A stretch of DNA of 63,345 bases, the filler included, from Jimgerdemannia flammicorona (taxonomy: Eukaryota): the NCBI GenBank assembly GCA_003990765.1. It is 2 parts of 2 records of this genome, joined end to end, with 100 filler letters (N's around TTAATTAATTAA, not from the genome) between each part and the next. Parts side by side here need not be neighbours in the genome. Positions count along the whole stretch, not along the records: positions 1 to 31,628 come from RBNJ01000384.1; 1 more part is not named here. One strand, given 5' to 3'. The position numbers were made by a program, and so were the translations under genes. The number at the start of each line of letters is the position of its first letter. Within the stretch, counting starts at the first letter, position 1. Shown here piece by piece: positions 127 to 51,371 of the stretch. The notes below the pieces were generated by a model. That model saw only the letters and a list, made by a program, of their open reading frames with translations, made no database searches and was not told the DNA's origin.

Positions 127-2437
127 CTACCTTGATACTTTCTCTTGCAGCCCCAAATGCCACCCCTCCTCAAATACAAAAAGCCAATGTCCCACCAGTC
201 CCACCCACACTACTATCACCCACTCTAGGGTGAGCCAGCTATCACCCACCCCACTCACAAGCTGAGATCTCAAGTCCTCCCAGCGGACCCCCTCCCCCAC
301 CAGCCTATGCCCCACTCCCAGTCTATTCTTTATTTCTACCCAAAATTCCCTCAAAACCTTACACTCTCCCAATCAATGTTCTGGTATCTGTACATAACCC
401 CCAGCTTGCTCAACATCATAGCACTCCTCACAATCGAAAAGGCCACTGTCTACCAGATGCCCAGTATGGAAATTCAATATGACATTCCTCTGCAGCATTC
501 TCTATCATACCACCCAGAACTTGGAAGGAAGCCACCTCTGCACCTCTGCACTCCAAGACCAGATACCTGCTCAGTCCCACTCCTTGTCAATCCCTGCTGC
601 CTATCAGCCCCTTGGCCAAAGATCCTGACCAAGACCCTGCTGACACTCCACTCTATCCCCAATATCAAATATAGCAAGTAGAGCACCCCCCAGGAGCAGA
701 CTATCCCATCACTACATACTAGGCCCCCACATTACCTCTCCCTCATTGCCTTACCAGCACAGGCCAATTCGGTGTACTCCATCAACCACTCCCCACCAAA
801 AGCCCTTAAACTGCAGCTGCTGAATTCCATTCAACCCTACCAAAGAGAGCAGATCACCTGAGGACTCTCAAGGGGAGGTTCTCATCTCCCACACCTTCTG
901 TAATAGAGGTACCCAACCCTCTCCCTGTAGTTCAGCAGCTCTCTTCAACCACCAGGCTCACAAGCAGTACAACCTCTTAGGGAAATCCACAAGGCCAAGA
1001 CCTCCTCTGATCATTGGTGTTGCAAGAGTATCCCAACTGATCTGGGACCTCCTCTCTGCCTAAATTCAATCTCTAGCCACCTTTATCAGCCTCTTCACTA
1101 CCCAAGCTGGGAAGTCAAGGTGATAGGCCACATACCACAGCTTTGGGAACTAGTATACATTCAGAATTAATACCTGCCCTGCCAGAGAAATATGGCAGCC
1201 TCCCCAACCTCAAAGGGCCTCCCTCCAAATGGTCACCCTGCTCTCCCACCACACTCATGGCAAGACAGAATCATATACAGAAAGAAAGATACCCAGATAT
1301 CACACCACCTCACCAGTAGGGACAATTATTCCAATAACGTCTCCACCCACTAGCCCATTCCCAAGCACCATTGTCTCACACTTATGCCAGTTGAGCTTTG
1401 CCCCAGAGTGAGCCTCATACTATTCCACTATCTTCCTAAGTGTCTCAACATCTGCTACAGACCCAAGTCCAACCACCATGTCATCAGCAAAGGCCTCCAC
1501 CTTCTACACTATACCATATATAGAGAGCTCTGCTATCTTCTGACAAATTCTATCCATCAATAGCTCCAACAAAAGGGCATAGAAGATAGGGGACAGAGGG
1601 TCCCCTGAGGCACTCCTCTCTCCAAGGAAAATGCCAGACCACAGTAACCATTACACATTAGTACCATCTGACTGCTCTCTAGCAGGTTCAACATAGAAGC
1701 CTGAAATCTTGGGGGAACACCAATTCAATCCAAAACCTTGCCCAGCCAAACTCACCATACATAGTCATAGGCCTTCTTCTGGTCCAAAAAGACCAACCTT
1801 CCATTCAGTCCACAAGCCTGGACCCCTTCAATAACCTCATGCACCTATACAGTCTCATCTCTTATAAGTCTGCCCCCAACAAAGCTCTGCTGCTCCTCCC
1901 CCAGTACCTGTTGGGCAACTTTCTGCAGCCTCGTGACAATCACCTTAGTTACTATCTTCCTATCCATATCTAGAAGTATGATCAGTCTCTAGTTCTTTCA
2001 GTCTTCCCTCCTCCCCTTGTCTTTATACAATAAGACCACTAGTCCAAGGTCCTGCTCTCCCACCCACTCACCACTCTGAAGAACATGGTCACAGAGAGCA
2101 GCCATCTCACCCAATACTCTGGAGACCTTCACCATCTTCTTCCAGAAGTCCCATGGTAATCCATCCTCCCCTGGTGCTGTTCTAAGTTTAGTTGCTACAA
2201 GGATACTCTGGATCTCCTCTCCTTGCACTGGTAAGATCAAGTCACCCAGTCTGTCTACTTGTGGCAGCCCCCACTCCTCTAGTATGTCTGTAATCACTAC
2301 CTCATCAGCACCCCCTTCTCCCTCACTCCACAAACCCTGCCATCTTGCCTTCAGAACCCCTAAGATTTGTTGTGTTTTATGCACTATGTCCCCATCGGCA
2401 TCTAGGACCCCATTCCACCGATGTTGCACTCTCCTAG
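127..2437 (-). pseudogene. LINE A ORF2, reverse transcriptase and C-terminal part (many stops)
   Basis: Motifs APGEDGLPWDFWK, LLYKDKGRRED, LDQKKAYD, GVPQGDPLSP, FADDMVV, YLGIFL and GGLGLVDF read on the minus strand. Stops are mostly TAG/TGA/TAA at CAG/TGG/CGA/CAA positions. Confidence 0.9.
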
Positions 2438-4482
2438 TGTAAGAGGGTTGCTTTTTAGGGTAACCGTTACATAGTTCTGGAAGGGTTTTCTGGAGGTTCT
2501 GAATATTCTGGAAGACCATTTTCTTATGCTCAAGATCAATATCATATGGAGTACGTCCTCTACACTTATTGATTTCAAGATTGGGTTGACATCTCAACCA
2601 AAGTCCTTTTCCAGACTAGTTCTAGGTGTTCAGAATTTTTCCGTATTTTAGGAAGTTCAAGAAACTAAGACCAGCTTAGTTGAATTGGCATATTGCTGCA
2701 GACAATACCCAATTAGGAAATTTCATGATGGGGTTAGGAGTGGGACCTAACAGGGAGCGGATTTACTTAAGAGTGGTTTATGGGTTATAGAATAGGTTTA
2801 TTTGCTATTCATGATATTGCTATACTAGGAGTAGTTGTGTGAAGGGATATTGTGGGGAAGTATTCAGGAATATTCTTGTGTGTTCAAGTCTGTTCAAGTC
2901 TGAGATTCTGAGGTCTGGGGGAGGGGGTATTTATACTAGTGAGAGGCTATCTGGACTATGCTGAATATGGATGTAGCACTAAGTGCCTTGCTGAGTCGGA
3001 ATGCAGTCATGTAGTACAAGTGTGATCTGACATATCAAGAGATCATCTGACTGCTGAGTCAGTTCACAGTCACATCATATAAAGCTAATCTAACTATACT
3101 ATGACTGCTAGGCTATTTATGGGTTTAGGCACTGTCTGGATAGTCTTCGATGACATCACCATCGATTGCATCATCTCTGATGAAGTAGTCATCTAGGAAG
3201 AGTGGTTTGCAGATTACTTCTCCTTGTTTGCTGAGGTAGTAATACATTGGAACTTCATCTCTATCCTACAGGATAGCATCATCTGTCTTGTAGGCTGGAT
3301 AAGGTGTTGGTGGGCAAAGGATGGGTGTATTGTCTTTGCTTTCATTGGATTCACTGTCTGCGTACCTTCTATAGGTTACAGCACTATGAGTTGCAGGATT
3401 GTAGTAAGCTGGTGGCTGTGGTTCATGTCGCTCATACTCAGGTGGTGGAGTGGTTGGTTCAATCTCGAGGGTTGTCTGGAGGTACAGGTTGTGTTCTCCA
3501 GTCTCTTCATTGTAGTTAAAGTAATTAGGAGTAAACGCAGGTTGGTATTCATGCCAGTGGTCATTGTCCCAATAAGTCTCGTATGCAGTTATGAACTGTT
3601 GCAAGTTTATCAGCAAGTTTGGCAGTATGATCAGGATTGGCAGAGATCCTTGGCTAGAGGTCATGTTAGTGTCAGAGGGATCATTGTCTTCTGCTTCATC
3701 TTCGTCGAAGTGGATTATATCATAGACGTCCTTTATGACATATCTGACTTGAGGCATTTGCAGGATATGGTCATCAGGGTGTGGGAAGGTTCTGTCTGTG
3801 GTCTGGACATATTCGAGATACTTGTGGTTGAGTTCTTGTACATATCATGTCATCGATTTGGCCATAGGACAGAGTAGCAACCATTTCGCTGGTAGTGACT
3901 TGGAGGCGGGAAATAAAGGTGTTGTACTCATAGAAGAGTTCTCGATGTTTGCGGGTGATGAGCTTCTGGTGTTGAGACATCTAGGTAATATCTGTATCAT
4001 GGTGGTGTTCGACCATGTCTTCCAGGAGGCAGCCGATCTGGTAGTAGCTTGAGATTTATCCGATTCGGTGGGTCTCGCTAAGCATGTTCAGGACATTCCA
4101 TTGGGCTTCTATAAAGTAGAGGGGTACTAGGCTATGGATATTCATGAGGGGCAGAGGGGGTGTAGCTCAGTTGACAATGGCATTCCAAATGTCAGTGTGG
4201 ATACAGTTGTAGATCTCAGTAGTCATATTTGTGTATTTGGAAGTTATGGTTGTTATTTGTTTTGGTTCTCTGATTCGATACATCTCGGTGCTCGGTATAT
4301 ATGCATTTGGTCCTGATTAGTAAGATTCCGTTTGTGTAAATCTTGTGTTCCGTGACTTCAAATTGACTCAGCTTTGTGCACTGTGACTTCGGTTTGACTC
4401 AGCTTCGTGATCAAGCAGGTGATTTCCAGATTTGTTCAGAGGTCATACATAATTTCCGTGGCTTGGAGGTTGTGTGCTTACA
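2438..4482 (-). repeat. 3' LTR of E1 (2045 bp)
   Basis: Near-identical to 11000-13040 and adjacent to the PPT. TATA-like GTATAAATA near 2930-2938 on the minus strand. Confidence 0.96.
3125..4361 (-). pseudogene. LTR-embedded accessory ORF of E1, 3'-LTR copy (stops plus a 4-bp insertion near 3840)
   Basis: ORF-track pieces 3774-3980 and 3266-3757 correspond to the in-frame copy at 11687-12919. Confidence 0.7.
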
Positions 4483-4496
4483 ACTCTCCCCTTCTT
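4483..4496 (-). promoter_or_regulatory. Polypurine tract of E1 (AAGAAGGGGAGAGT)
   Basis: Purine run immediately preceding the 3' LTR on the element strand. Confidence 0.85.
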
Positions 4497-4907
4497 AGCT
4501 TTTGATGTCCTCATCAGGCCTTCTAATTTGTTCTAGTGTTGTTACACCATTTGGGAGGTCAAAAGTCTGGTAAGGTCCATTTTCTCAGAAAGTGGCATGC
4601 TCATAGTACAGTTGTCTAACACGTTGGATTCATACGTTAAAGGGTTGTATGTTCAATGCTGTGTGCCGGAAGTGATTCTGACATCATTCATTGCTGGAGA
4701 ATTTCCTCTAAGGAATCTTCTTAAATGTCTATGCCTTGTTTCTCACCAGTGGTACAGGGAGAATAGGCTTGCTTTCAGTTTTGCTATTTTTCCAGGGATT
4801 TGGTATTCTTGTCTTGTTTTGCTGAGTTCTTGACTTGGTTCATGATAGTTATAATGTTCAGGAGGGTAATATATAGTATGTATGAATAGGTGCAGAGTAT
4901 TTGATTC

Positions 4908-6260
4908 TAGTTGTTCAAGGAATCATATTCCTGAACTAGGTTGGTAGCATTCTGGAGATTGGTCTTGGGTTCCCAGGTTGCATCATGGATTGGGTAACCT
5001 TTCCATTTAACAAGGTACTCAGGATGGTTCTTGTTGCCACATTTGTTGAGGATTTGTTCAACTTCATACTCTTCTTGGTCATTAATAATGACAGGTGTAG
5101 GTGGTTCAGTGGTCCGGTTGGGGAATAGCTCATCATTATTCTCATTGTATCACTTGAGACATTGAACATTAAAGACTGGGTAAATCTTAATGGTGTCCAG
5201 TAGTGCCAGTTTGTAGGAGGTTGGAGAGACTTGTGCAATGACTTCAAATGGTCTAATGAATTTGCTGTTCAGCTTAGTAGATGGTCTGTGCTTGAGGTTG
5301 TCAACTCGGTATCCTCTGATGTCTAGTAGGACTTTTTCTCCAATATCAAAAATTTCTTCTCGGCAGTGTTGGTTAACATACTGTGATTGTTGTTCTTGAG
5401 CTCGTGATAGATTCTCGATGGCAATCTGGCTTAAATTGTGCATTCGGAGTAAGAATTCTTCAACAGCTTTGACTGTGCAGGGTTCTTCAGTGGTTTGGAT
5501 AAGTGTCAATGGGGTGTTTGGATTTTGTCCAGTGTTGGCAAAGAATGGGGTCATTCCAAGAGAGGCTTGCTTGCTATTGTTGTAGACAAACTCAACTGCA
5601 GTGAGGTGTTCATACCAGTCATCTTGTCTGTAGGAAACATAGTTCCTTAGCATTTGTTCTAGAGTTTGGTTCATTCTTTTAGTTTGGCCATCAGTTTCTG
5701 GGTGAAAGGCTGTGGATAGTGCAAGTTTTGTTCCAAGGTGTGCATGGAGGGCTTTCCAAAAGTGGCTGGTGAATTTTGGATCTCGATCACTAACAATGAT
5801 CTTAGGAAGACCATGATAGTGGAAGATGTTGTCAAACAAGAGTGTGGCTATGTCTGGTGCTGTTGCAGTAGTGGTAGTAGGTATAAAGTGGGCTTGTTTG
5901 CTGAGGTAGTCTACAAAGACAACAATTGCATCCTTCCCATTCTTGGTTCGGGGTAGTTGTACAATGAAGTCCATAGAGATTTGTTCCCAATTTGCAGATG
6001 GTACTGGAATAGGGTGGAGTAAGCCAGGTTTTGCTAGTGTTGAGGACTTGTTTCGTTGGCAGGCATCACAGGAAGTGATATAGGTTTTGAGCTGATCTGC
6101 CATACAGGGCCAATAGAAGTTTCGGGAGATAACTTCGTAACATTTATCAAATCCTAAATATCCAGCTGTAGGGGCATCATGACATTTGAATAAGATAGTC
6201 CTTCAGAGGTCTCGGTTGTTTGGAACATACAATCTGTCCTTGTAGTAGATAGCATTGTCC
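4908..6260 (-). pseudogene. E1 integrase with C-terminal chromodomain
   Basis: CDACQRNK zinc motif, ISMDFIVQLP, IVSDRDPKFTSHFW and HPETDGQT. Then EEYEVEQIL...EYLVKWKGYPIHDATWEP (chromodomain, ~4930-5075). Confidence 0.93.
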
Positions 6261-6269
6261 TTGAGTTGG

Positions 6270-8360
6270 TATTAATTGTACCGGGTATGCTTGTCAGCAT
6301 CATCATTGTTCAGGATTTCTCGGAGTACTTGAGCTTCTTTATCATCAACACATGCTGTGATGATTTGTTCCATGATAGTGTTGGTAACCAAGGTCAGAGT
6401 TTGGATAACCTCTTCGATTGGTGGTCTGGAGATTGTATCAGCAACAATATTTTCCTTACCAGGGTGGTATTGGATTTCATAGTCAAAGTTGGTGAGGACT
6501 TTCATCCATCTAGCTTGCTTTCGAGAAAGGGTAGCCTGGGTCTTGATGTTGACTAATGACTTGTGGTCGGTCAATATAGTGAAGTGTGCTCCTTCTAGAT
6601 ATGGTCACCATTTGATCAGAGTGTCTACAATGGCTAGTATTTCCTTCTCATGAGTTGCATAGTTGATTTCGGCATCATTGAACTTGCGGGAGTGATAGGC
6701 CACAGGGTGTCCTTCTTGCATGAACACTGCTCCAAGAGCTAGGTCAGAGGCATCAGTAGTGACTTCATAGGGTAGGGTAGGGTTTGCTGCTTGAAGTACT
6801 GGAGTGGTTATCAGGGCATCTTTCAGTGCTTGAAAGGCAGTATCTTGTTCGGGTCTCCAATTTACAAGATTGTTGAAGTCTTTCTCTTGTTTCATAGTCC
6901 AGGGTTGTTCTTGTTTCTTGCTATGCTTGGTCATTTGGGTGAGGGCAGTAGCAATTTTAGCAAAGTTGGCAACAAATCGCCTATAATAGTTTGCTAGTCC
7001 CAGGAATGACTGGAGGTCCTTCAGTTTCTTGGGTCTGGGCCAATCTTTGATTGCAGAGATTTTGCTGGGGTCCACTTTGATTCCATTTGGAGTGACAATG
7101 TATCCAAGAAATTGAATTTCTTTCAGAAGAAATTTACACTTGCTGAGTTTTGCAAAGAGTCAGTTTTCTTGGAGCTTCAGTAGTACTAGTTCGAGGTGTT
7201 CGAGATGTTTCTCTAGGGTTTTGCTGAAGACTAGGATGTCATCAATGTAGACAACAACAAATTTGTCCAGGTATGGGTACAGAATGGTATTCATCAGTAT
7301 CTGGAAGGTTGCTGGAGCATTAGTTAAGCCAAAGGGCATAACCAGGAACTCAAAGTGTCCATAGCAAGTTCGGAAAGCTGTCTTGTAGATGTCTTCTTCT
7401 TACATAGCAATTTGCCAGTAACCATTTCATAGGTCAAAAGAGCTCATGAATTGTGGGTTGGTAAGTCTATCAAATATTTCATCGATCCTCGGTAGTGGGC
7501 AACAGTTCTTGATGGTCTGTTCGTTGAGATCTCAGTAGTCAATGCACATTTGTAGGTCTCCTCCTTTCTTGACAACAAAGAGGACTGGTGTGCCATAGGG
7601 TGATACGCTAGGTCTGATGAATCCTTGTTCTAGGAGTTCGTCGATTTCTTTCTTGAGTGCATCAATTTCTCTTGGAGACATGTGGTAGATTGACTTGAAG
7701 GCTGGTTTGGCATCTGGGATAGTCTTGATAGCATGGTCTACTGCTCATTTGGGAGGTAGGCCTTTCGGGAGCTTCTTTGGGAATATGTCTCAGAATTTCT
7801 GAAGTAGTGGTCTGACACAGTTGTCAACTTTGGAAAAATCTTCTTCAGAGCTCTCGGGTTCTCCTTTGGATGGTCGGATGGAGATGGCAAAGAGAGGGCA
7901 TTTCTTGGCCAATTTCTTGAGTTGTAGCTTATTGATGTGGGTGATCTTTGGTCCAGGGTTACTAGAGTTGAGTGAGTCCTTTTTGCCTTATAGTTTAAAG
8001 TTGTGGCATCCTTTCTTGATGGTCAGAGAATGGTTTACCCAATCAATCATGGGGTTCTCTTGTTTTAACCATAGAGTCCCAAGGATGATTTCATTGTCAG
8101 GAAGTGGTATGATTTGGAGGGTAATATGTACTCAGTAGTTGCCAATTTGGAAGGGTAGATTGCAGACTTCTTTGCTAATAACATGTGAGGTTCCATCAGC
8201 TGTAGCAACTGCTTGAGTTTGCTGTACTGGAGAGGTGAAGACCTTGAGTCTGTTGGCTGTCTCTTCATTAATGAAGTTGCCTGAGGCACCACTGTCTATC
8301 ATAATCTTGACAGGTGCTCTGTTGACAAAAGCCTTAAGAGTGAGCAGTTTGTCTGATCCA
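6270..8360 (-). pseudogene. E1 protease - reverse transcriptase - RNase H
   Basis: IMIDSGASGNFI (protease); [14 protein letters not shown] and [11 protein letters not shown] (RT); [22 protein letters not shown] and TDHKSL (RNase H). Confidence 0.93.
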
Positions 8361-8569
8361 ATGCTGGTGATTTCAGTTGTAGGAGTCTTTCTTCTGTTGG
8401 TTCTTCTTTGAGCCAGTTTATTGACACAAGAGAAGCAATCATCAATCATTTGGGAAGAGTACATTCCAATACCATGAGGGCATCGGCCACTTGGTATATA
8501 TCCATCTTCTATCTTCTTGTAGAATTGTTCTTCTTTACTCATGGTAGGTTGGGCTGGGGCCTTGTTTGA

Positions 8570-8985
8570 TGAGCCAAATCCTTTGGATCCTCAGATGATG
8601 GGTAGTAGTTCAGGAACTTCCTTGACTGTCAGGGTTGACTCAATTTTTTTGAATAGGATCTGGGCGATGCAGAAGCCAATAGGGATCTTGAAGGGTGTCC
8701 AACTGTGGTTTCGAATGAGGACAATGATTTTGCCTGTGTAATCTTCATCAATGACTCCTCCTTCTACTGAGAGTCCTTTCAGTGTTAGGCTGCTGTGACA
8801 GCATATTCTTCCAATATGTCCTTCAGAGATTTGGATACTGATTCCTGTATAGACTTGTTTGACTTCTCGGTTGGAAACTGTAGCTTCTTTGGCTGCATAT
8901 AGGTCATATCCAGCTGCTTTTTGACTTCCTTTGGTTGGGGCCTTAGCAGTTTATCTTAACTTGACAAAGTCCAGTATTCTGGTGG
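8570..8985 (-). pseudogene. dUTPase domain of E1, between gag and protease
   Basis: AAGYDLYAA, GLSVEGGVIDEDYTGKIIVLIRN, IAQILF and GSKGFGSS correspond to trimeric dUTPase motifs 1, 3, 4 and 5. Confidence 0.88.
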
Positions 8986-8999
8986 TCAGGTTGTTAAGG

Positions 9000-10975
9000 T
9001 GGTGCAGAGTGGTGACAGTTGCTCATGTTATGTTCGGGATTTTCGATTGGGGCAGGCACTGGCCATGTGTCCTGTCTTTCAGCAATAGAAGCATGCTCCA
9101 CTTCTTCGAAGTTCATTTCTTTCACCTTCAGTAAGTTTCTTAAAGGTACTTGGCTGGGTGGGTTCATGATTTCTGGGTGTCCAAGAGGTGGATGTGGAGG
9201 GAGCTCAAGATGCTTCATGCTTGGGTTCTTCTTTCTTGGTTCAAGTCTTTTTCTTGTTGTTGAATTGCCTTCAGGGCAGAATTGGTCCAGCTGTTAGGAT
9301 TCGCTTGACCATGGTCTTGATTCTTGCAAGGCACCATTGTTGGTGATCACAACCAACTGGGCAGCCTTGTTCTTGGATTTTTCTAGTAAGTCATTCAGGC
9401 AGAGCATCAAATAAGTGGTCTGCTCTTGTACCATTTCATGCTTCATCATTGGCAATATATCCTAGGCCAACAGTGTTCAGGAGTGACTCGAGTTTTGTAC
9501 AGAAGGTTTCGAATTCTTCTTTGCCATGTATATCGAATTTGAGGTTACAGAGTTTTACTCAAGATTCAGCAATTATGGTTTCACTGCGATATTGAGCAAT
9601 CATGAGTTGTTTGAGTCCAGGGGCTGCAGGATGGGCTCCATATCCTGGGGCATTGTTTGCTGCATTCTGGGCAACTACTGCAGGTCGGGTATCCCATGTG
9701 AGGGGTTTTTCAGGAAGGGTTTACCACCATTCTTCAGCAGGTCCTCAGAAGAATATAACAACTTAGCGGACATAGGCTGTAGTTATAGCAAAGAGTTGTT
9801 CCAGGGTGTGGTCTTGATTGTTTGTCAGAACATGGTCAGCAACTCGCTCATTGGTCCATTGATTGGCTTCAAAGTTGGTGTCAACTACACTAATGAAGCT
9901 TTAGACTTCTTGTGCAGTACCATTGAAGGTAGGTAGGCTCAGATTTTTGGTAGGTCAGGTCTGTTCAGCTAAGGCAGTGATAGTTGCTGCCATTATAGCT
10001 ACTTGGGCTGTGAGATCAAGAATCTGTTGGTTCGCCATATTGATTGCTGGAGGTGGTTGGACTACTGGTAGTGGTGTTACTGGTACTACTTGAGGTACTG
10101 ATGCAGAGTGTGATGGGGTTCTTTGGGTCTGTGTAAGTTGCTGGAATAGTAGTTGTGAGTCTAGAGTGAGGGCTTGATAGATAACTGTTTGTTGCTATAT
10201 AGGTGTATTCTGTCCTGATGGGCATGCATCTCCTTCAGTAGTATATCTAGGATTGAATTCGGTAAGATACTCCTCCTCTTCTTCAGTTTGGTCCCCATGT
10301 AATTGGGTTTGCTTGGCATCGAAGTAGATGGAATCAATTGTATATCTGATTTCAGATGGACTTAATTCAAAGTCAAGTTCAGGTTCAGTATTGGTTTCAG
10401 GTTCAGGTAGGGCTGTAGCAGGGCCTGTTTCAGATTTGGGGTCAGGTAGTTGGTGAAGAGTTTCTCTTGCTTCTTCCTTAAGGATATGGCAGACCTTGCT
10501 GTTCTGGAATCGGTAGTATAAGGTGGTCTTGGTCCTGGTGCAGTGAAAGTCGGTAGAGTTGAGCCACTTGGCTACAGAGGCTTGGGCTTCGTGAGGAACT
10601 AAGGCTAGAAAGACTGCTGCTGGTTGTCCTAGGTCGCTCAGATTTGTGGAGCTGACAAAACTCTTGTTGAGAAGAGTAAAGAAGGCTTCAATAAGACCTT
10701 CTTCATCTTGACTTGCTGGGTGTAGTGTAAGGAGTTCGGTGAATAGGGTTTCACCTATTTGCTGGTTTAACCGGAGTACTTCTTTTTTTGAATGAAGTTT
10801 ATCCCACTTGTTGTAGGTATGGAGGTCAAATTGTTCTTATACGTCAGGTTCAATTCTCTCCAGATTGTCAGATGGTTTGGATAAATTCCAGTTCAGAGAT
10901 TGGGCTTTATACCAACTTGTAGGAATTCTCAGAGGGGTTTGTAGCAGGGTGAGGAAGCGTCTTGAAGCAGAATTG
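9000..10975 (-). pseudogene. E1 gag with a long N-terminal in-frame extension
   Basis: MANQQ... at 10038, followed by LPTFNG, GPAEEWW and ETFCTKLESL (retrotransposon gag-like). The same frame continues upstream to the PBS with only CAA/CAG-type stops. Confidence 0.7.
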
Positions 10976-10980
10976 GATTG

Positions 10981-10996
10981 TAAACCACTGCTACCA
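10981..10996 (-). promoter_or_regulatory. Primer-binding site of E1 (TGGTAGCAGTGGTTTA), probably initiator tRNA-Met
   Basis: Starts 3 nt inside the 5' LTR boundary. TGGTAGCAG is complementary to a CTGCTACCA 3' end of the initiator tRNA-Met type. Confidence 0.75.
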
Positions 10997-10999
10997 AGT

Positions 11000-13040
11000 T
11001 GTAAGAGTGTTGCTTTTTAGGGTAACTGTTACGTAGTTCTGGAAGGGTTTTCTGGAGGTTCTGGATATTCTAGAAGACCATTTTCTTATGGTCAAGATCA
11101 ATATCATATGGAGTATGTCCTCTATGCTTATTGATTTCAAGATCGGGTTGATGTCTCAACCAAAGTCCTTTTCCGGACTAGTTCTAGGTGTTCAGGATTT
11201 TTCCGTATTTCAGGAAGTTCAAGAAACTAAGACCAGCTTAGTTGAATTGGCGTATCGCTGCAGACAATACCCAATTAGGAAATTTCGTAATGGGGTTAAG
11301 AGTGGGACCTAACAGGGAGCAGATTTACTTAAGAGTGGTTTATGGGTTATGGAATAGGTTTATTTGCTATTCATAATATTGCTATACTAGGAGTAGTTGT
11401 GTGAAGGGATATTGTGGGGAAGTATTCAGGAATGTTCTTGTGTGTTTGAGTCTGTTCCAGTCTGAGATTCTGAGGTCTGGGGGAGGGGGTATTTATACTA
11501 GTGAGGGGCTATCTGGACTATGCTGAATATGGATGTAGCACTAAGTGCCTTGCTGAGTCGGAATGCAGTCACATAGTACAAGTGTGATCTGACATGTCAA
11601 GAGATCGTCTGACTGCTGAGTCAGTTCACAGTCATGTCATACAAAGCTAATCTAACTATACTATGACTGCTAGGCTATTTATGGGTTTAGGCACTGTCTG
11701 GGTAGTCTTCGATGACATCACCATCGATTGCATTATCTCTGATGAAGTAGTTGTCTAGGAAGAGTGATTCACGGATTACTTCTCCTTGTTTGCTGAGGTA
11801 GTAATACATTGGGACTTTGTCTCCATCCCACAGGATAGCATCATCTGTCTCGTAGGCTGGATAAGGTGTTGGTGGGTGAAGGATGGGTGTATTGTCTTTG
11901 CTTTTGTCAGATTCACTGTCTACGTACCTTCTATAGGTTACAGCACTATGAGTTGCAGGATTGTAGTAAGCTGGTGGCTGTGGTTCATGTCGCTCATACT
12001 CAGGTGGTGGAGTGGTTGGTTCAATCTTGAGGGTTGTCTAGAGGTACAGGTTGTGTTCTCCGGTCTCTTAATTGTAGTTGAAGTAATCAGGAGTGAACAC
12101 GGGTTAGTATTCGTGTCAGTGGTCATTGTCCCAATAAGTCTCATATGCAGTTATGAACTGTTGCAAGTTCATTGGCAAGTTTGGCGGTGTGATCAGGGTT
12201 GGCAGAGATCCTTGGCTAGAGGTCATGTTGGTGTCAGAGGGATCATTGTCTTCTGCTTCATCTTCATCGAAGTGGATTATATCGTAGATGTCCTTTATGG
12301 TGTATCCGACTTGAGGCATTTGTAGGATATGGTCATCAGGGTGCAGGAAGGTTCTGTCTGTGGTCTGGACATATTTGAGATACTTGTGGTTGAGTTCTTA
12401 TATCATGTCATCGATTTGGCCATAGGACAGAGTAGCAACCATTTCACTGATAGTGACTCAGAGGCGGGGAATAAAGGTATTGTACTCATAGAAGAGTTCT
12501 CGATGTTTGTAGGTGATGAGCTTCTGGTGTTGAGACATCTGGGTAATGTCTGTATCGTGGTGGTGTTTGACCATGTCTTCCAGGAGGTGGCTGATCTGGT
12601 AGTAGCTTGAGATTTGTCTGATTCGGTGGGCCTCGCTAAGCATGTTCAGGGCATTCCATCGGGCTTCCACGAAGTAGAGGGGTGCCAGGCTATGGATATT
12701 CATGAGGGGCAGAGGGGGTGTAGCTCGGTTGACAATGGCATTCCAAATGTCAGCACAGATATAGTTATAGATCTCAGTGGTCATATTTATGTATTTGGAA
12801 GTTGTGGTTGTTGTTTGTTTTGATTCTCTGATTCGATGCATCTTGGTGCTCGGTATATATACATTTGGTCCTGATTGGTAAGATTTTGTTTGTGTAAATC
12901 TTGTGTTCTGTGACTTCAAATTGACTCAGCTTTGTGTGCTGTGACTTCGGTTTGACTCAGCTTTGTGATCAAGCAGGTGATTTCCAGATTTGTTCAGAGG
13001 TCGCATGTAATTTCTGTGGCTTGGAGGTTGTGCGCTTACA
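11000..13040 (-). repeat. 5' LTR of E1 (2041 bp)
   Basis: Direct repeat of 2438-4482, followed by the PBS on the element strand. Confidence 0.96.
11687..12919 (-). pseudogene. LTR-embedded accessory ORF of E1 (~410 codons in one frame, nonsense mutations only), unknown function
   Basis: ORF-track pieces 12458-12919 and 12116-12319 and the terminal ...DYPDSA* all share one frame. Internal stops fall at CGA/CAA/TGG-type positions. Confidence 0.75.
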
Positions 13041-20538: not shown

Positions 20539-22111
20539 ATTTGTGCGTCAGGTGATGGATCACTATCGGTGGTAATGTACAGGAAGAACACAGACATAGT
20601 GATACCGGAGATTGTAGCAAGTAGTAGGGAGATGTGCTGGGATCAGCCAGGAATACTAAATTGTGAATGAATTAGGATAGGAATTAGGATGCTTGAATGA
20701 ATAGTGTGAAAATGAATTGTGCAGCAGGTGCCAGGAATGCTGAATTGTGAAAATCGATTACAAATAAAAAGATTGATAATGCAAGATTGATGATATAAGA
20801 TTCGAATTGAACCCTTAATTTGATTTGATCAAATCAAATCAGACCCCCAATTCAATTCAACTTTGATTTGATTTGACTTTTATTTGAATCAAAAAATCCT
20901 CAATTTGATTTGACTCCAATCAACCCTAATTTGATTCGATTTGAATTGATTCAATTTATTTGGGAGCACTACTCCAGGCTATAACCCCTCCCTACATTCT
21001 GCCAGCTGAAAGCCCCAAATCCCCCCACCTCAGTACACCCACCAGAGCTCTTGCTTGATGACATTTTGATAGTACCTTTTCTCCAAGTTGTGTCGAAAAC
21101 CATTGCTTGAAGTTTTGTATAATGTGAATTATACAGAAGAAAAAGGAGAAAAAGGCTCATATGTATAGTATCTACTCTCTCTATTATTCTATTACATAGG
21201 TACTTGTTATGACTGGTATTCTCTTTTTAGATCTTTTCATTTCTCTTTCTCTCTTTCAAACTATTATTTATTTCAAATCTCCCCATTTCCAACAGTTTCC
21301 TGACTATCATCCTCAGTATACTCTTTATAAGTATATTTATAGTAAGATTTATCATCTTGCTTTATACTGCTCTCATCATTCTAACTGTGTATCTGCTGTC
21401 TGAGTTCTCAGTAACTTCATGGTCTATTGCTATACTTACTCTATTTCTATCATTTATAGCCTACTTACCTATATTGAATGGTCTGTTATTTGATCTTCTC
21501 TTCTCTCTCTCTCTTATCTCTCCTCTCTTCCCTCTCTTCTCTTTTACCCTCTCTACACCCTCTCTTCTTTTCCTCTCCCAATTCTCATCATACTATTTGA
21601 TCAAGCTTGCTAGGCTATACAATGTCCTGATGCTGTCTTGTGCTCTTCTCTTTTATATAATAGACTGTTGTCTCTTCCTCAGCACTTTTTTATTGTTTAT
21701 TTATTCCTTTCTTCTATCTTCTCACTTATCCATCACTCTTATTTTACATTTTTATCATCTTTAGATACCTCTGGCTCTATTGGAGAAGATTAAAAAATAT
21801 CCTAATCCCCTCTGGGGTCTCATGCTCACTCTGGGGTCTCAGTCTTTACTCTACTCTCCTCTACTATCTTCAGCCTCTTGGTTTTACCTCAGGCTCACTA
21901 TGGCTCAATCTACTTGACCTCATCCCTTACTCATACTTACCCCTCTGGGGTCTGCAGATGCTTTTTAATCTCAATTTGGATTTATTTGTTTCTGTTTTTT
22001 ATACTCACTCTGGGATTGGCTCTCTCCTTATCTTTATATAATATAAGGTTTTTAATCTAGTTATCTCTATATTATGATATATCATTCTTTTTTAAGACTT
22101 TATATTTATAT

Positions 22112-23288
22112 AACCTGGGTACTGCAGACCCCTATCACTTCATTCTCTACTGCCACAAAATGGAAACAAGGATCACCATTGCCACCAAATACCTCCAAAT
22201 ATGGCAGGAATACGAAATAGGAAACCTCCTCTGCCGGGAGTTCCCACAGGCCAGCCCTCAAGAGCTACAAGATACCACTCCCATGGATCTACATGAGGCA
22301 AGGACAGCAAAGAAGATCCATCAGATCTTCAGGCATGCACCATGGTCGATCCCCAACTTAGAGTATGTTAGAGTCTCAGACTTCAGAGACCTGTTATCCT
22401 GCCGTATCAATGCACTAGAAGCCAGAGTAGCCACAGAAGCCCAGTCCACCATCACCCTCAACAGCAAAGAAGTAGAAGACTTCTAGCACCCTATCCTTCA
22501 AGGACAACCCAGACCAATTCCTGCAAGGATTGATCTCAGTATTCCAAGGCCCAAGCATCCAGGTTAGATCTCCCCAAGACCCCACATTTGTTCCCTATTT
22601 TGTAGAAGAGAACCTCATAGACTGGAGAGCTCCAGATCTTGTCCCCAATTTCCCCGCCGAATGTGATGACGTCATTGGCGATGACATCATCCTGCGCGAC
22701 ATACCCGAAGCATGCAAAGAACATGAAATGCATGACAACGAAGTATACAAGATGCGCGGTCTGCACGACGAATTCGCAGACCTCATCTCCTTCAGTGATG
22801 ATGATGATGAAGTTCCCATGGTCCTGAACTTTCTGCTCTAAGTTCTTTGTTACACTGGATAATGCCAGTATCGGTATTCTCATATAACACTGGATAATGC
22901 CAGCACCGGTATTCTGAGATGACACAAAATTATTCCAGCACTGATATTTTGATATGATACTAAATAATGCCAGCCCTGGAACTTAGTAGTTTTAGTTATT
23001 GGAATTTATATTTAGCTTTATATCTTAGCAACCATTGAATTTTATTTTGTATAAATACCTCTCTTATTTCCTCTGAAATAAAGTCAGTCAATTCAGTGCA
23101 ATACACACACTTCCTTGCAAGCAATCTAAGAGATAACAAGACAGTTAAAGATAAGAAGTTTGAGGACTATAAGACCTTGGGAAGGCACTCCAATAAGAAC
23201 TTACTTATAATAAACTTGAGTTAGTCTAAGAGATACACCTTGAAGAGAATCTGGCATATTTGAAGGACTCAGCGACCACTACATGACA
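22112..23288 (+). repeat. 5' LTR of E2, missing the first ~360 bp
   Basis: Similarity to the 3' LTR begins at AACCTGGGTACTGCAG (22112 corresponds to 29354). Contains the accessory-ORF copy 22160-22841 with a 1-nt frameshift near 22500. Confidence 0.93.
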
Positions 23289-23291
23289 ACT

Positions 23292-23316
23292 TGGTGCCCA
23301 TTGGCTGGTGATTCAA
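23292..23316 (+). promoter_or_regulatory. Primer-binding site of E2 (TGGTGCCCATTGGCTGGTGATTCAA); tRNA not identified
   Basis: TGG begins 3 nt after the LTR end. The sequence is identical in E3 (42624-42648). Confidence 0.75.
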
Positions 23317-23409
23317 GACAAATCCCTCACTTTCAAGCTGAAAAACGAACAACCCCCACAACAACTACCCTGACTACAAGAGTCACCCCCTGCAAGAATT
23401 CAAGACAAG

Positions 23410-26400
23410 ATGGAAATGCATCCCCCTACATTCTATGGATATACTACTGAAGAGTCAATCCTGACCTTCATTGAAGACTTTGAACAATTTTCCACTGTAC
23501 GAGTCCTTGGTGTGGATGCTCAATTGGCCCTTCTACCAGTCAACCTCAGAGGACCTGCCAGAGACAAGTTCAATGCAGCCACCATTGCTGATGCTGGTGC
23601 AGCCAAACTTACCAACATGAAGGCCTTCCTCAGAACAACATATTATACCAAAGAGATCAAGCAAGCTCTCAAGGATCAACTCAATACTATCTGCCAGGGA
23701 CTTAGTGAAGATCCCAACTCATTCTATATCCGAATTTGCCACCAGATTGTCTTGGCTGGCTATGATGATCGCCTCAAGGAACAAATAGTGGATTCAACCT
23801 TCCTTAAAGGAGTTCACTCTGAAATTGCCCTAGCAATCTGGTCTACCCCAGCTGTACTGACCCTTGATCAGAAAGTGGTCTTTGTATAGAGATATTGGAC
23901 TGCCAGACACCCTGCCGAACACTCAATAGAGAAAATAACTGGTATCAAGATGGAGCCATCAAAACCAACTAGTATCTTACCTACTACAGTTGTAAACAGA
24001 CAACCAACCCCACCTACCCCCAAGACAGCCAAAGCTGACCCAGTAGAAGAACTTACCAAGCAGTTCGCCGAGATGACTGCACACCTTGGTGATGTTGTTA
24101 GAGAAGTCCAAAGCGCCAACAGGAGACCAGTGCAGAGATTTGCAGCTACTACAGAAGAATGCAATAACATTACATACTTCAGATGTGGAGAAGAAGGCCA
24201 CTATGCAAAGAATTGCATGACCGAAACAAGATGCAAAGCCCAACCAAGCAATGCTAGCAGAACCAGAGAACAAACCAATGCAGTAGTCATTGAGGAGATC
24301 GGTGACACTGATGATGAAGAATACTATGAGGAGCTCAAATTCTACCCTGCTACTGAAGGTACCAGAACCCGGTCCAAGCCCTATGACAAGAAGAGCAACA
24401 GCAAGCCAGTTGGAAGACCAAAGAAGACTCCAGCTGTCACTATTCAAAGCAAGACCCAATATGAGGAGATTGATCAAGACATGGAGTTAGACGAAGCTGC
24501 CCACCAAATTATTGAAGGCACTACTTCAGTCTCAGGAGAAAGCAAGAGCAAGAAGGAACAGAAGCTGTGCAAGACCAAGATCCACTAGTATAACATCTAC
24601 AAGGACCTCAAGAAACAGAAGATCAATGCCACTTTTGGGCAGCTAGCTGAAGTTCCTGCCTTCAGACAGCAATTGAGAGTAGGACTTGCAACTACTGTCA
24701 AGAATCAAGAGTACAAGAGTGTAGAAGCTCACAATGTACAAGAAGAATCTGAGAACTCAGGTGAAGAATCCGAAGACCAGTACAAGACATCAGCCTATAC
24801 CCCCTACCAGATTGAAGACTGTATCTTTGATGCCATCATTGATACTGGTGCTGGAGGATGCCTCATGAGCAAGAAGGCAATTGACCACCTAGGTTGGGAC
24901 ATTGAAGAGTCCACCAAAATGGTCTATATCACAGCAGACAGTATACGAGCTACCCCCCTTGGCAAAATCCGAGAAGTCCCCATCAAGATAGGAGGAGCTA
25001 CCATCCCAGTAGACATGATTGTTACAAGCACCACCAACTATGACATCCTCATTGGCAACCAATGGCTTCACAAGGCCAAGGCCATCATTGACCTCAATGC
25101 CCAGAAGATGCAGATCAACTACAGAGAGAGAAAGGTATGAGTTTCTATCAATGTCCACAAAGGAGTCCTGCCAGACATGGAGGAAGGAGATGAAGAAGAC
25201 ATAGAGGTCTTCATGCACTCGGTGAACAAGAATAAGAACAAGACACCCAAGCTCACAGATGAGCAGTGGTATAACAAGATCATCGATGGGTATGCCCCTC
25301 AAGGAAGATGCCCCCATGGTACTAGAATGTACTGCTCTGAACACCCGAATGACTGCTGGTCCTGTATCAGCGAAGTCAGGAAAATCCACCAATGAAAATA
25401 TGAGCAAGAAGCTGCCGAAGCAAAAAGAAAAGCTGAAGAAGATGACCAGCCCCCAGAGCTTCAAGCTGACAGTGACGATGAGGAGGAACAAGAATCAGAC
25501 ATCACTCTCAAGGTCAAGAAGTTTTACCCTGAAGCCAAGATCCCAGAATACAAGACTGAAGGAGCCATAGGAATGGATCTTGCCAGCATCCAAGATGCTA
25601 CCCTCAAACCACAGACCACTACCCTACTTGGCACTGGAATTGGAGTTAAGTTGCCAGAAAACCATGCTGGAATTATCAAGACCAGGAGCAGTCTGGCCAA
25701 AAGCGAAATCTCAGTTAAAGGAGGAGTAATTGACCCTGATTACACTGGTGAGATTTTTCTCATAGTCAGAAATCACAACCACACCACTCTCTTCGAAGTC
25801 AAGAAGTATGACAGGATTGGCCAGATGCTGATCCATGAAATCAAGAAGCCCAAGATCATAGAGGCCACTGAACTTATCAAGACCAAGAGAGGAGAACAAG
25901 GCTTTGGATCTACTGGAAGAGGAGCCTATGCTGCCACCAAGATTACTGAACTTGAGCACAAGAAAAACAAGGACCAGAACAAGCACACATATACCATTGG
26001 AGAAAATTTTCCCCTGGAGGAACAACTTCTCAAGATCCTACACCAGAATGAAGGAGTACTTACTACAGACTTTAGGGATATCCACAATCAAGAACCCAAG
26101 TACTACCATGAAGTTGACACTGGTGATACCAAGCCTATCTATCAGAAAGCCAGACCCATATCACCTGCCTACAGAGAGTGGCTGCAAGCCAAACTCAAGG
26201 AAATGGAAGAAGCTGGAATCATCAAGCAAGCTATCAGCCCCTGGGTCTCACTCATTGTCCTTGTCCCGAAGAAAGGAAGCAAGCCTAGAGAGTTTGCACC
26301 AAGACTCTGTATTGACTACAGGAAACTCAATACCATCACCAAGAAGGATAGGTAGCCCTTGCCGAATATTCAAGAAATCCTTACCACTCTTGGAAGTGAA

Positions 26401-27437
26401 GCCAAATACTACACCACCTTGGATCTGTTCTCAGGCTTCCATCAGATCGGTCTCACTCAAGATGCCAGTGAGAAATCAGCCTTCATCATACCTGATGCCA
26501 CCTACATCTATCTGTGAATGCCATTTGGAATGTGCAATGCCCCAGCAAGTTTTCAGCGAATGATGAACAGAGTCTTCAGCAATGAGATTAGAAAATGGCT
26601 CTTTATCTATGTTGATGATGTGATCATCTTCAGCAATACTGCAAGGGAACATGTCAATCACATACAGCTAGCCCTCAAGAGGCTCAAGGAGCATGGCCTC
26701 TACATCAAGCCCAAGAAATGCAAGTTTGCAGCTCAAGAAATCACCTACCTAGGACACCTTATCAACCAGACCGGAATCCACACAGACCCCATGAAGATCA
26801 AGGCTGTTGCAGCCTACCCAAGACCCAGAACAACTACAGAAGTCCATGCCTTCCTTGGACTGGCCAGCTACACAGAAGATTTATCAAAGGATATTCCAAT
26901 ATTGCAGCACCTATCTATGAGCTACTGAAGAAGGAGACCAAATTCGAATGGACCAAGGAGCGCCAAGAAACCTTCAATGAACTCAAGACCAGATTGACCC
27001 AAGCACCCATCCTCAGAAGACCAGACTGGAACCTAGAATTCATCCTGCAGACAGACACAAGTGCTATAGGACTTGGAGCAGTTCTAGCTCAGAAGAAAGA
27101 TGGACATGAATATGTCATCTCCTACACAAGCTGAGGTACCCGTAGAGCAGAACAGAACTACGAGTCATGTAAGCTTGAATGCTTAGCAGTAGTTTGGGCA
27201 GTAGACAAGTTCCACTACTACCTAGCTGGAAAATACTTCACCATTCAGACAGACCATTCTGCTCTTGCCTGGCTATTCCACACTCTGAACCCCAAAGGAA
27301 TATATGCCAGATGGATCTACAGGCTGTAAGAATATGACTGTACTGTCAAGTACCACCCAGAAAAGACCAACACCAATGCCGATACACTCTCAAGGACACC
27401 CCGAAACATCTCCATCAAGACTATTCAACATGAATAA
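23410..27437 (+). pseudogene. E2 gag-protease-Zn motif-dUTPase-RT-RNase H polyprotein
   Basis: Zinc knuckle (Y)FRCGEEGHYAKNC; AIIDTGAGG (protease); GGVIDPDYTGEI and RGEQGFGSTG (dUTPase, ~25500-25920); MPFGMCNAPASFQ and IYVDDVIIFS (RT); LQTDTSAIGLGAVL (RNase H). One frame apart from an indel near 26870. Confidence 0.94.
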
Positions 27438-28677
27438 GGAGCTATACTATGGATTAATCAGCTACCTTAGGCAGCAGAAGATACCCAACCATCTCAAACC
27501 CTGGACAATCACCATCATCAACTAGACTTGGAAACAGTTTGAATTAGACAACACTACACTCAGAAAAGGAGGAAAGCTAGTAATACCTGAACACAAGAAG
27601 TATCAAGTAATGAAGGAAGTACACGAGCAATGATACTTAGGAGGAACCAACACATATGACAAGGCAAGAAGAACCATGTGGTGGCCCAAGATGGAAGAAG
27701 ACCTGCACCAATTTGTCAAAGGGTGTGACAAGTGCCAAAAACAGAAACAAGATCAGCAAGACCAGATACCCAGATCATCAAGAATTGAGTCTATCCCCTT
27801 CCACCACATCGCAATGGATATCATTGGACCACTACCAGTAATACTATCAGGAAACCGCTATATTATAGTTATTATAGACCTCTTCACCAAATGGATAGAG
27901 GCAGGAGTATTACAAGAAACCAATGCCCTCTCTATAGCCAATTTCCTACACTGAGAAATCATCTGCCACTACAAGACACCAAAGCAAATCACAACAGACC
28001 ATGGTACAGAATTTGTCAATGGATTCCATGAGATAATGTACCAGAAATATAAGATCCAGCACATCAAGACCACTGCATACCACCCTCAAGGAAATGGACA
28101 GACAGAGAGAACCAACAAGACCCTCAAGAATATCCTAGCAAAGATCTCAGAGACATATGAGAATTGGGATAACTATCTCCCAACTGCCCTCTCTATTCTA
28201 TAAGACATACAATCACAGAGCACACATTTTACCCCAAGAGAGCTGCTCTTTGGAGAAGAAGATTCTAATGGAATCTTAGCCACAAATCTAGACCTAACTT
28301 GGAGACAGGTTGATGCAGAAATCCGGAGACTATACCAAATCAGGAAGAAGGCTGAAGATTACATCACTAAGTCACAAGCACTGATAAGGAAGAATGCGGA
28401 AAAGAATCACAAGGCCCTAGAACCCATCTGAATTGGAGAAAAGGTTCTACTGTATCGAAATATGGTAGAAGCCTCATGGTCACGAAAACTGGAGCCCAAA
28501 TGGGAAGGACCCTTCTACATACAAGATATCAAGGGAACTACCTTCTGGCTTAGAAAAATCTCAGGGACCATACTGCCTACCACAGTACATAGGAACAGAC
28601 TCAAGAAGTACCACAAACCTATACAAGAGAAGCAAAATGTGATGACCACCTGCAAGGTTCTAGTCCGCGAATCATAA
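27430..28677 (+). pseudogene. E2 integrase, in the +1 frame with its own ATG
   Basis: MNKELYY..., WWPKMEEDLHQFVKGCDKCQK, IAMDIIGPLP, ITTDHGTEF, HPQGNGQTER and KLEPKWEGPF. Confidence 0.9.
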
Positions 28678-28978
28678 CAGCATGTCCCATGACCAGCAGG
28701 CTATCTGTCTGGACCATTCTCTAAGGGATATGGCACTGGCAACTACTTATCCGTGAAGACTTTCGCAGTCAGAGGAGTTCGAACCATCAACTGATTGGTC
28801 AAGATCAGAATCAGGCCCTTGCTCTATATGAAGGGAGTGACCCTTCACCATTACACCAAAATACAAAGGGAAGACGTCAGTCCATAAACACCAGTTTTCA
28901 ACCCCTTGCCAGAGGTTATGGGATCAGCAAATTTTTCAGAACTGGACCAATGAATAAGGATGCTCAGGAAGATCCTTA

Positions 28979-28991
28979 TTCAGGAGGAAGA
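28979..28991 (+). promoter_or_regulatory. Polypurine tract of E2 (TTCAGGAGGAAGA)
   Basis: Abuts the TGT of the 3' LTR; identical to the E3 PPT at 36881-36893. Confidence 0.8.
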
Positions 28992-30528: not shown

Positions 30529-30544
30529 ATATATATATATATAC

Positions 30545-31728: not shown

Positions 31729-31760
<32 letters not shown>

Positions 31761-31761
<1 letters not shown>

Positions 31762-36200: not shown

Positions 36201-36858
36201 AGTAGTAATTATAATTACTAATAATATAAACCTAATAAAATAGTATAAAATTATATATCTATATATTGTTACATAGTGGTTGCTGAGTTCTTCAAATATG
36301 TCAGATTCACTTCAAGGTGTATCTCTTAGACTAACTCAAGTTTGTTATAAGTAAGTTCTTATTAGAGTACCTTTCCAAGGTCTTATGGTCCTCAAACTTC
36401 TTATTGTTAACTGTTGTAATATAGCGAATGCTTACTCTTGAAAGTACGTCAGATTTCTGTATCTTGAATACTTGATCTTCTCTGACTCCTCAGAGTCCTT
36501 GGGATACAGGGGTGGGTGAGTTCGAAGTGTATCTGCCCACAGGCTTACTAGTTCCTTTGCTATCTCTTTGCTTTTGAACTATTTTGATCTGAGGTTTATT
36601 TACTTGAAGATACTGGGTTATTTATACAAGTTTTGCTAACTATAAGGTGGCTAAGTAGTGAGTTATTCTGCAAGTATCAGATCTTTCAACATCTGCTAGT
36701 ATTTTGCTGATTGCAAACATTCTAACATCTCCTAAGTCTTTGCAAATGTTAAAGTTTCTGCACTTTGCAGAATATGACTGCTATTTATATCGCTAAACTA
36801 TATTGGGAATTGGATTCAGGTACTGTGATCAAATGTCTAATTCCCCTATTTCATGTTA

Positions 36859-37290: not shown

Positions 37291-37375
37291 TGGTGGCTCG
37301 GTGGAACACTACTGTCTTTCTATAGCTCACTGAGCCACGCTAGTGATCTTGAGGGCAGTAGCATTACTTTGTTGA

Positions 37376-51335: not shown

Positions 51336-51371
51336 TAACAAGCTAAAGATGGTTAGAGATATAGTTAGAAA

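Follow-up and report, generated by a model that had tools for sequence, protein, structure and literature searches.

We analysed a window of 63,345 nucleotides from Jimgerdemannia flammicorona (the whole stretch of DNA studied here, made of two joined parts), in which three long terminal repeat (LTR) retrotransposons, E1, E2 and E3, each carry an extra sense-strand open reading frame (ORF) at the 3' end, which we named ORF3. An earlier inspection of the DNA by eye, hereafter the sequence-only reading, had proposed that the three frames are homologous and encode an accessory protein. We delimited the elements by self-BLAST and by Pfam scans of read-through frames. They show the features of Ty3/gypsy elements (Metaviridae): a pair of LTRs, a primer-binding site and a polypurine tract (PPT), and a pol gene in the order protease (PR), reverse transcriptase (RT), RNaseH and integrase (INT).

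E1 lies on the minus strand between two LTRs (2427-4482 and 10986-13040; 2059 bp, 92.8% identical by self-BLAST). The 5' LTR (10986..13040, 2.06 kb) starts with TGTAAGC, and the 3' LTR (2427..4482) is preceded by a PPT, AAGAAGGGGAGAG, at 4484-4496. The internal region (4483..10985) matches, in Pfam, gag (CCHC), dUTPase, PR, RT, RNaseH, INT, SH3 and chromodomain. The chromodomain at the integrase C-terminus (PF00385, E 7.9e-16) makes E1 a chromovirus, and Pfam gave no chromodomain match in the read-through frames of E2 or E3. E2 lies on the plus strand. Its 5' LTR (22107..23289) is truncated at the 5' end near 22107, and the parts of its LTRs that can be aligned (22112-23289 and 29354-30529) are 94.2% identical by self-BLAST. 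The internal region (23290..28981) encodes gag (CCHC), PR, dUTPase, RT, RNaseH and INT by Pfam, with the pol stop at about 28675-28677. It is followed by the PPT AGGAGGAAGA (28982..28991) and by the 3' LTR (28992..30530), which runs from TGTAACGG to ATGACA. E3 is on the minus strand. Its domains follow the order seen in E2 (PR-dUTPase-RT-RNaseH-INT, Pfam), and it has short LTRs of 468 bp that are 95.1% identical by self-BLAST (5' LTR at 42650..43117, 3' LTR at 36413..36880). The latter runs from TGTGATGG to TTACA, with a 4-bp target duplication, ACAG. The E3 insertion interrupts an E2-type solo LTR on the minus strand (43118..44526 and 36252-36412), which starts at the point corresponding to the start of the E2 3' LTR. 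A partial third E1-type LTR (31757..32662, plus strand) adjoins the N runs at 31629-31728, which consist of two runs of 44 N.

The carriers had been described as three different families, which overstates their separation: E2 and E3 are relatives (58% amino acid identity in gag-pol). The pol of E1 shares only 25-33% amino acid identity with that of E2 or E3. A dUTPase domain is present in all three elements, before the protease in E1 and between protease and RT in E2 and E3, and the domains of E1 and E2 are 36% identical. Varying positions of dUTPase are described for fungal Ty3 elements, those of basidiomycetes, in the accessible part of a published survey (PMC2864245).

The ORF3 of E1 lies in both LTRs, as the sequence-only reading had it: the copy of the 5' LTR (11687..12919, minus strand) spans 410 codons, from 11690 to 12919, with 6 internal stops, and that of the 3' LTR (3125..4361, minus strand) has stops and a 4-nt indel near 3842. 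It encodes a conserved N-terminal domain (residues 50-172, approximately), followed by an acidic part and by a Pro/Tyr-rich C-terminal part. The partial E1-type LTR holds the C-terminal end of ORF3 at 31766-31972. In E2, the frame (29234..30082, plus strand) was located in the 3' LTR of about 1.54 kb, as claimed; it has 282 codons, from 29234 to 30079, and a stop, instead of 283 codons, and 4 internal stops. A copy with frame breaks occupies 22112-22841 in the 5' LTR, and the solo LTR does contain the copy that had been reported there, in a decayed state (43478-44292). For E3, a frame of 144 codons had been proposed. The stretch 36862-37290 (minus strand) does have 143 codons, with 2 internal stops, but the true frame is longer (36859..37383, minus strand, about 174 codons, 4 internal stops in all). 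Its start at 37383 comes from the alignment of intact relatives, and in CATGACTAG the ATG of the frame (37383-37381) and the stop of pol (37378-37376) overlap.

The ORF3 of E1 and E2 is wholly within the LTR. It begins some 120-240 nt from the first base of the LTR, and the distal TATA lies beyond its end. The ORF3 of E3 is internal and directly follows pol, with the PPT (36881-36890) within its last codons and its end about 20 nt into the LTR. ORF3 was found inside the element boundaries in all three elements, and also in the solo LTR and in the partial LTR, as expected of the additional ORFs (aORFs) of retrotransposons.

All copies of ORF3 in the window are broken. Of the 18 in-frame stops examined, 16 sit where the counterparts mostly have Q, R or W, which is the placement predicted by C-to-T decay; the two exceptions correspond to Glu and Asp. 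The differences between paired LTRs within ORF3 are nearly all transitions (transitions to transversions 48:0 in E2, 95:1 in E1), and the ratio of observed to expected CpG is around 0.2 in the three elements. All window copies of ORF3 are dead through C-to-T decay.

Intact, stop-free relatives of 83-342 amino acids were found in public protein sets, by word-indexed protein searches and then by running a profile against 1.84 billion representative proteins. Five proteins among 250 candidates were E2-type relatives at E ≤ 0.01, with 56-81% identity and up to 271 amino acids (the intact ones include P0004, P0005 and P0006, at 81%, 70% and 69%). Nine of 12 candidates were E3-type relatives (P0010-P0018, 67-86% identical), and a single one of 397 was of E1 type (P0009, intact over 247 amino acids, 65% identical, matching 12442-11693). 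The profile search returned 9 clusters at E ≤ 0.001, including distant forms of 200-342 amino acids. None had a taxon or an informative name, and the likeness to an abundant Glomeromycotina family that the sequence-only reading had mentioned is not supported by this search. The intact relatives are unnamed or annotated as "hypothetical protein", and are encoded on contigs of at most 4848 bp. In the family alignment, conserved blocks are interspersed with variable in-frame linkers. One further candidate, the metagenome locus L001 (30% identity over 78 amino acids), was the only one of 250 pattern-matched stretches to pass tblastn with the E2-family query; it was taken as a false positive because its ORFs look phage-like.

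We see little reason to doubt that ORF3 is a real, shared protein-coding gene. That its frames are chance open frames of long LTRs might be suggested by the breakage of every window copy, by the long open stretches opposite the E1 ORF3 (185 and 226 amino acids) and by the plus-strand frame 0 of the E1 LTR, which has 7 stops, as many as the sense frame, but this is extremely improbable in view of the intact relatives of 200-342 amino acids at 42-81% identity, the variable in-frame linkers between conserved blocks, the confident fold prediction for a relative and the location of the stops at Q, R or W positions. The two open stretches opposite the E1 ORF3 (11768-12325 and 3197-3877, plus strand) are probably a by-product of composition.

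The versions of E3 and E2 are similar at the level of single sequences (BLASTP, E 2e-5), and the alignment of their families by hhalign had a probability of 82% (E 1e-5, 102 columns), with a score of 41.9, while none of 150 column shuffles exceeded 20.9. The E1 version is more distant. BLASTP of E1 against E3 or E2 was not significant (E 3.7 and 0.052), and hhalign was negative against the narrow families of E2 and E3 (E 0.25 and 0.081). The family was widened with distant relatives to 18 sequences before the final comparison, in which the two E1 copies aligned to it over 123 collinear columns (probability 78%, E 1.8e-5). The score was 40.6, whereas 200 shuffles reached at most 21.1 and the reversed sequence 14.7. 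The two blocks that had been aligned by eye were recovered by hhalign, far above the shuffled controls, and MAFFT independently sets both in the same register. This profile-to-profile comparison was among the checks that the sequence-only reading had asked for, and it came out in favour of the three-way relationship.

The ORF3 of E1, E2 and E3 are thus very probably homologous, judging from these alignments, with the caveat that the E1 N-terminal domain is represented by two near-identical decayed copies. Could only E2 and E3 share ORF3 by descent, the E1 frame being another gene with a compositional or convergent likeness? The failure of BLASTP and of hhalign with the narrow families would fit this, as would the small content of the E1 profile (effective number of sequences 1.08), the identity of only 17% within the aligned stretch, and the C-terminal 250 residues of E1, which have no counterpart in E2 or E3. 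Yet, the collinear alignment to the widened family, of which no shuffle came near the score, the agreement of MAFFT, and the common geometry (sense strand, a start about 200-240 nt inside a long LTR, and the distal TATA downstream) make such a separate origin improbable. The comparison of profiles with shuffled controls also upholds the claim that the gene is common to a chromovirus (E1) and to elements lacking a detected chromodomain (E2 and E3).

The N-terminal part of the protein encoded by ORF3 is a conserved domain of some 130 residues, which is predicted to form seven helices. The AlphaFold2 model of an E3-type relative (P0012), made with the family alignment, is a seven-helix domain (helices 2-23, 40-75, 81-88, 92-105, 109-114, 120-125 and 128-151) with a mean pLDDT of 86.4 and a pTM of 0.76. 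The model of the E2-type P0005 has the same helix order, with pLDDT of 84-96 over residues 60-150 approximately, and then a low-confidence tail. The first conserved block (QEY-x-[IL]-G-x-LL) lies on the long helix, which is predicted to pair in antiparallel with that of a second copy. The second block (IAK[RK]IH-x-[LIV]F) belongs to helix 92-105, which a short helix precedes, and this pair of a short and a long helix looks in the models like a helix-turn-helix (HTH), which we treat as a lead only. The tail behind the domain evolves fast and is rich in acidic and bulky hydrophobic residues; in the E2 type it reads DLISF, an acidic run and LNFLL. Over the final 40 residues, the net charge amounts to -6 in E1, -13 in E2 and -10 in E3. 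The helical core and the acidic tails that had been foreseen from the letters were therefore found again in the models and in the charges.

The models also support, without showing it, that the protein is dimeric. The homodimer prediction passed its controls, with a score of 0.48 (median of three runs) against 0.17 for the best control. In benchmarks, the mark for a dimer was reached by 21 of 30 one-chain pairs and by none of 23 single chains, and for eukaryotic proteins by 17 of 29 pairs and by none of 30 single chains, although among eukaryotic pairs without an older solved relative only one in seven reached it. The runs had a contact agreement of at least 45% and a partner pLDDT of at least 66. 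The predicted interface is symmetric and antiparallel, and involves residues 40-76 of both copies, with residue 58 against residue 58.

The family is previously undescribed. We found no match to it in the libraries that were searched, and no convincing one among solved folds. Among the three PDB chains that matched the family profile at E ≤ 10 there was no retroviral protein, and neither this search nor Pfam indicated a sequence relation to Sag, Nef or Tas. Language-model searches gave weak leads to DUF3102 and to a "DUF1016/ParB HTH" cluster (scores of 0.89-0.90), and the hits in the ESM Atlas were phage or bacterial clusters without a name (0.92-0.95), with no common family. The predicted short-helix/long-helix pair recalls HTH proteins of the ParB/SopB/VirB type, to which the structural alignments are weak, at a Z of only 2.9-3.7. 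The core of both models aligned to VirB (3vwb), with Z 2.9, a root-mean-square deviation (rmsd) of 4.0 and 76 residues for one model, and Z 3.7, rmsd 5.1 and 78 residues for the other, while the P0012 model aligned to DNA-bound SopB (3mky) with Z 3.6 and rmsd 4.9 over 90 residues. For helical models, such values can be expected by chance. The HTH reading is a lead only because even the best Z of the whole library (3.5 and 4.9) is below the level that helical models reach by common arrangement. The DUF1016 protein YhcG of Escherichia coli resembles ORF3 by eye, with YQEIGRRI and FSAKNLRQMRLFY facing QEYEIGNLL and RELRVVKKIHQVF, but the distance between the two motifs differs (about 37 residues against about 18). 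The N-terminal DUF1016 family (PF17761) was not matched by any of 20 members in Pfam at E ≤ 10.

The comparison of E2 with E3 explains how the gene came to lie in the LTR. The last 80 nt of ORF3 and the LTR of E3 align globally with the last 80 nt of ORF3 and the distal 450 nt of the LTR of E2, with a score of -4.5 (200 shuffles: mean -48.3, standard deviation 7.4, maximum -25), and the U5 ends are alike. Since this end-to-end alignment is far above the shuffles, ORF3 and the promoter-R-U5 unit are collinear in E2 and E3. The stretch with the PPT of E2 (28957-29004), 240 nt upstream of ORF3, is 83% identical to 36919-36867 of E3 (53 nt), and an E3-type primer site is absent at the end of the E2 ORF3. 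What differs between E2 and E3 is the position of the plus-strand primer site. The interval of about 300 nt between the pol stop and the PPT of E2 (28678-28981) is related to E3 only in its last 50 nt, approximately. It has no detectable relation to ORF3, and tblastn for a relic of an E3-like ORF3 there was negative.

In retroviral replication, U3 begins immediately after the PPT, so that a shift of the PPT is enough to place ORF3 in both LTRs. With a PPT upstream of ORF3, as in E2 and by its geometry in E1, reverse transcription copies the gene into the U3 of both LTRs, and it remains in solo LTRs. The relocation of the PPT, in either direction between an E3-like and an E2-like state, would then link the internal and the U3-borne forms of the gene. 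E1 shows the E2-like geometry.

The TATA and AATAAA signals and the U3/R borders given here were assigned by consensus motif matching alone. Downstream of ORF3, both E1 (TATA TATAAATA at 2928..2935, minus strand; AATAAA at 2797-2802) and E2 (distal TATA at 30291, AATAAA at 30318) have a match to TATAWAWR and an AATAAA. It had been claimed that ORF3 could only be expressed from the 3' LTR. The gene is indeed upstream of the distal TATA in both elements, but exclusivity was not established, as E2 has a second candidate TATA, TATAAAAG, inside the LTR and about 80 nt upstream of the ORF3 ATG (29147..29154, plus strand). ORF3 may thus be expressed from any LTR copy. In the solo LTR, this upstream TATA is kept as TATAAAAA, its eighth base changed from G to A. 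E2 also has at least three copies of a 35-bp tandem repeat (30100..30215, plus strand), located right behind the ORF3 stop and before the distal TATA, and the same array is found in the 5' LTR (22852-22979). The repeats have a palindromic core, approximately AATRCCAG-CA-CTGGTATT, which makes them candidate sites for a dimeric binder encoded by the host or by the element. The CpG decay may mask a CCGG-type site in this palindrome. The palindromes of the E3 LTR differ, being of the type TCTGCA-N3-TGCAGA.

Overall, we tentatively favour an account, at less than even confidence, in which ORF3 is an undescribed accessory gene of dUTPase-bearing Ty3/gypsy elements with a function in regulation. For the gene product itself, the role of regulator or transactivator, which we infer, is possible and rather doubtful. 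The dimeric protein would bind nucleic acid and act on its own LTR through the acidic tail, in the manner of the Tas transactivator of foamy viruses. What helps a transactivator or anti-silencing role is limited to the predicted symmetric dimer and the weak HTH-like hints of the models.

Several results weigh against this account. In Pfam, the search of all 20 members at E ≤ 10 gave no consistent family (four different families, with one member each and E of 0.03-2.5), and PHROGs and NCBIfam gave nothing usable. Against all PDB chain sequences, the family profile reached no E better than 0.097, Foldseek found no match at E ≤ 0.001 in PDB and BFVD, and the best structural Z across the whole library was only 3.5 and 4.9 for the two models. 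The identification with DUF1016 was rejected, since hhalign with E. coli YhcG (a single sequence) had a probability of 0.2%. The dimer prediction was alignment-free and is based on the model score alone. For the E1 type, the two decayed copies of the window are the only source of the N-terminal domain, P0009, the sole intact E1-type relative, covers only the C-terminal 250 residues, and E1 failed against both narrow families, as described above. Finally, the differences at codon positions 1/2/3 are 37/25/54 between E2 and the solo LTR, and 10/14/24 in the supposedly neutral LTR pair, and this excess at third positions is unusable as a test for selection because it is confounded by CpG decay.

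A function in the handling of RNA, like that of Rev or of CERV in the element Cer1, is unlikely. The dimer would bind unspliced genomic RNA, and its hydrophobic-acidic C-terminal motifs would recruit the export or packaging machinery. From its location in U3 or 3' of pol, ORF3 is expected to be expressed by a subgenomic and possibly spliced message, and an element with splicing must also export its unspliced RNA, as described for Cer1 in the accessible text of PMC10309623. The Arg-rich N-terminus of the E2 type (RRAMRTRTRR) and the Leu/Phe-rich C-terminal motifs would suit this function, as would a dimeric helical fold, as modelled, that has no convincing DNA-binding match. However, the Arg-rich stretch is not kept in E3, E1 or the distant members, and no RNA-binding family or fold was matched in Pfam, among PDB sequences or by structural comparison.

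We regard as improbable that ORF3 is a factor of host interaction, i.e., a chromatin tether, a targeting adaptor or an anti-silencing decoy, acting through motifs of the tail while the domain only dimerises. The motif [DN][LI]I-x-F with an acidic run does recur (DLISF in the E2 type, DIIHFDEDEAEDND in the middle of E1), P0021 has it at least twice (PDLINFS, PDLITFSP), and the tails remain acidic in spite of their fast evolution. Silencing is also a pressure on these elements, since all copies in the window are silenced and CpG-decayed. Yet, the E3-type P0012 and P0010 stop right after the helical domain (...EAWEFE) and lack the tail motif, and the conserved function must therefore sit in the helical domain. 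The motif may be similar to SUMO-interaction motifs or clathrin boxes.

The regulator reading can be extended to one of "complex" retrotransposons, which we consider unlikely as a whole. ORF3 would then be a dimeric DNA-binding transactivator, moved into U3 by the shift of the PPT, and would form a positive-feedback module with the LTR. This would follow the logic of Tas without a relation to it in sequence or fold. Each LTR, including solo LTRs, would be a self-contained module with the regulator gene, its own upstream TATA, palindromic repeats and the promoter of the genomic RNA.

Outside the three elements, the window contains diverged copies of a non-LTR element at 1-2200, 13440-15850 and 54600-62900 (70-74% identical, some of them inverted), with matches to endonuclease/exonuclease/phosphatase and RT and an extreme GC skew (-0.47 to +0.48). 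The ratio of observed to expected CpG falls to 0.01-0.02 at 50-63 kb. It is near 1 (1.02) only at 45001-50000, which could represent a host gene or an island free of methylation, and where two open frames have no Pfam match (47586-48788, 400 amino acids; 48613-49359, 248 amino acids). The DNA between elements at 30001-36000 and 50001-52000 is very AT-rich (GC 0.18-0.28).

Sense-strand extra ORFs located 3' of pol are known in LTR retrotransposons without an assigned function, e.g., in plant Ty3/gypsy elements and in bdelloid rotifer retroelements with common ORFs (PMC7264820, PMC6431247 and PMC5408684, in their accessible parts). ORF3 resembles these aORFs in that it is on the sense strand, 3' of pol, kept within lineages and common to diverse types of elements. 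It differs from them in E1 and E2 by its location within the LTR, as aORFs lie between pol and the LTR; the accessible part of the review of plant aORFs (PMC7264820) has no phrase placing one in, within or inside the LTR. In fungi, an "add. ORF" without function is marked in the figure of full-length chromoviruses of a 2010 survey (PMC2864245, accessible part), and the accessible text on BcGypsy1 of Botrytis (bioRxiv 10.1101/2021.04.13.439636) mentions a gene, brtn, for which it gives no function. The comparison of ORF3 with these two extends to their descriptions. Open-access text, searched by words, yielded no account of the ORF3 family or of an LTR-internal gene in fungal Ty3 elements, although one may exist in subscription journals or supplements.

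Among retroviruses, genes located in U3 or overlapping it include sag of mouse mammary tumour virus, nef of lentiviruses and the bel/tas region of foamy viruses. The sequence-only reading had likened the geometry of ORF3 to that of such genes, and this holds for E1 and E2, where ORF3 is in U3, but not for E3, where it is internal. In both E1 and E2, as in the retroviral cases, duplication of the LTR also doubles the coding sequence, which precedes the promoter of the genomic RNA. With Tas, ORF3 would further have its layout in common, a DNA-binding part and, behind it, an acidic activation part. Unlike retroviruses, the carriers of ORF3 are Ty3/gypsy elements without env, and E2 further differs from the retroviral U3 genes in having a candidate TATA also upstream of the frame.

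To our knowledge, genes carried by LTRs have been described mainly for retroviruses, and almost none of the extra genes of LTR retrotransposons has a known function. The ORF3 family spans a chromovirus and a non-chromovirus lineage with only 25-33% identity in pol. The pair formed by E2 and E3 shows a simple route by which an internal gene can enter the LTR, the relocation of the plus-strand primer site. If ORF3 is a regulator, the LTRs would be units of gene plus promoter, with a bearing on the origin of accessory regulation of the retroviral style and on the way in which new host genes could arise from solo LTRs. If the LTRs are indeed positive-feedback modules, the switch would outlive the element as a dispersed gene of the host genome.

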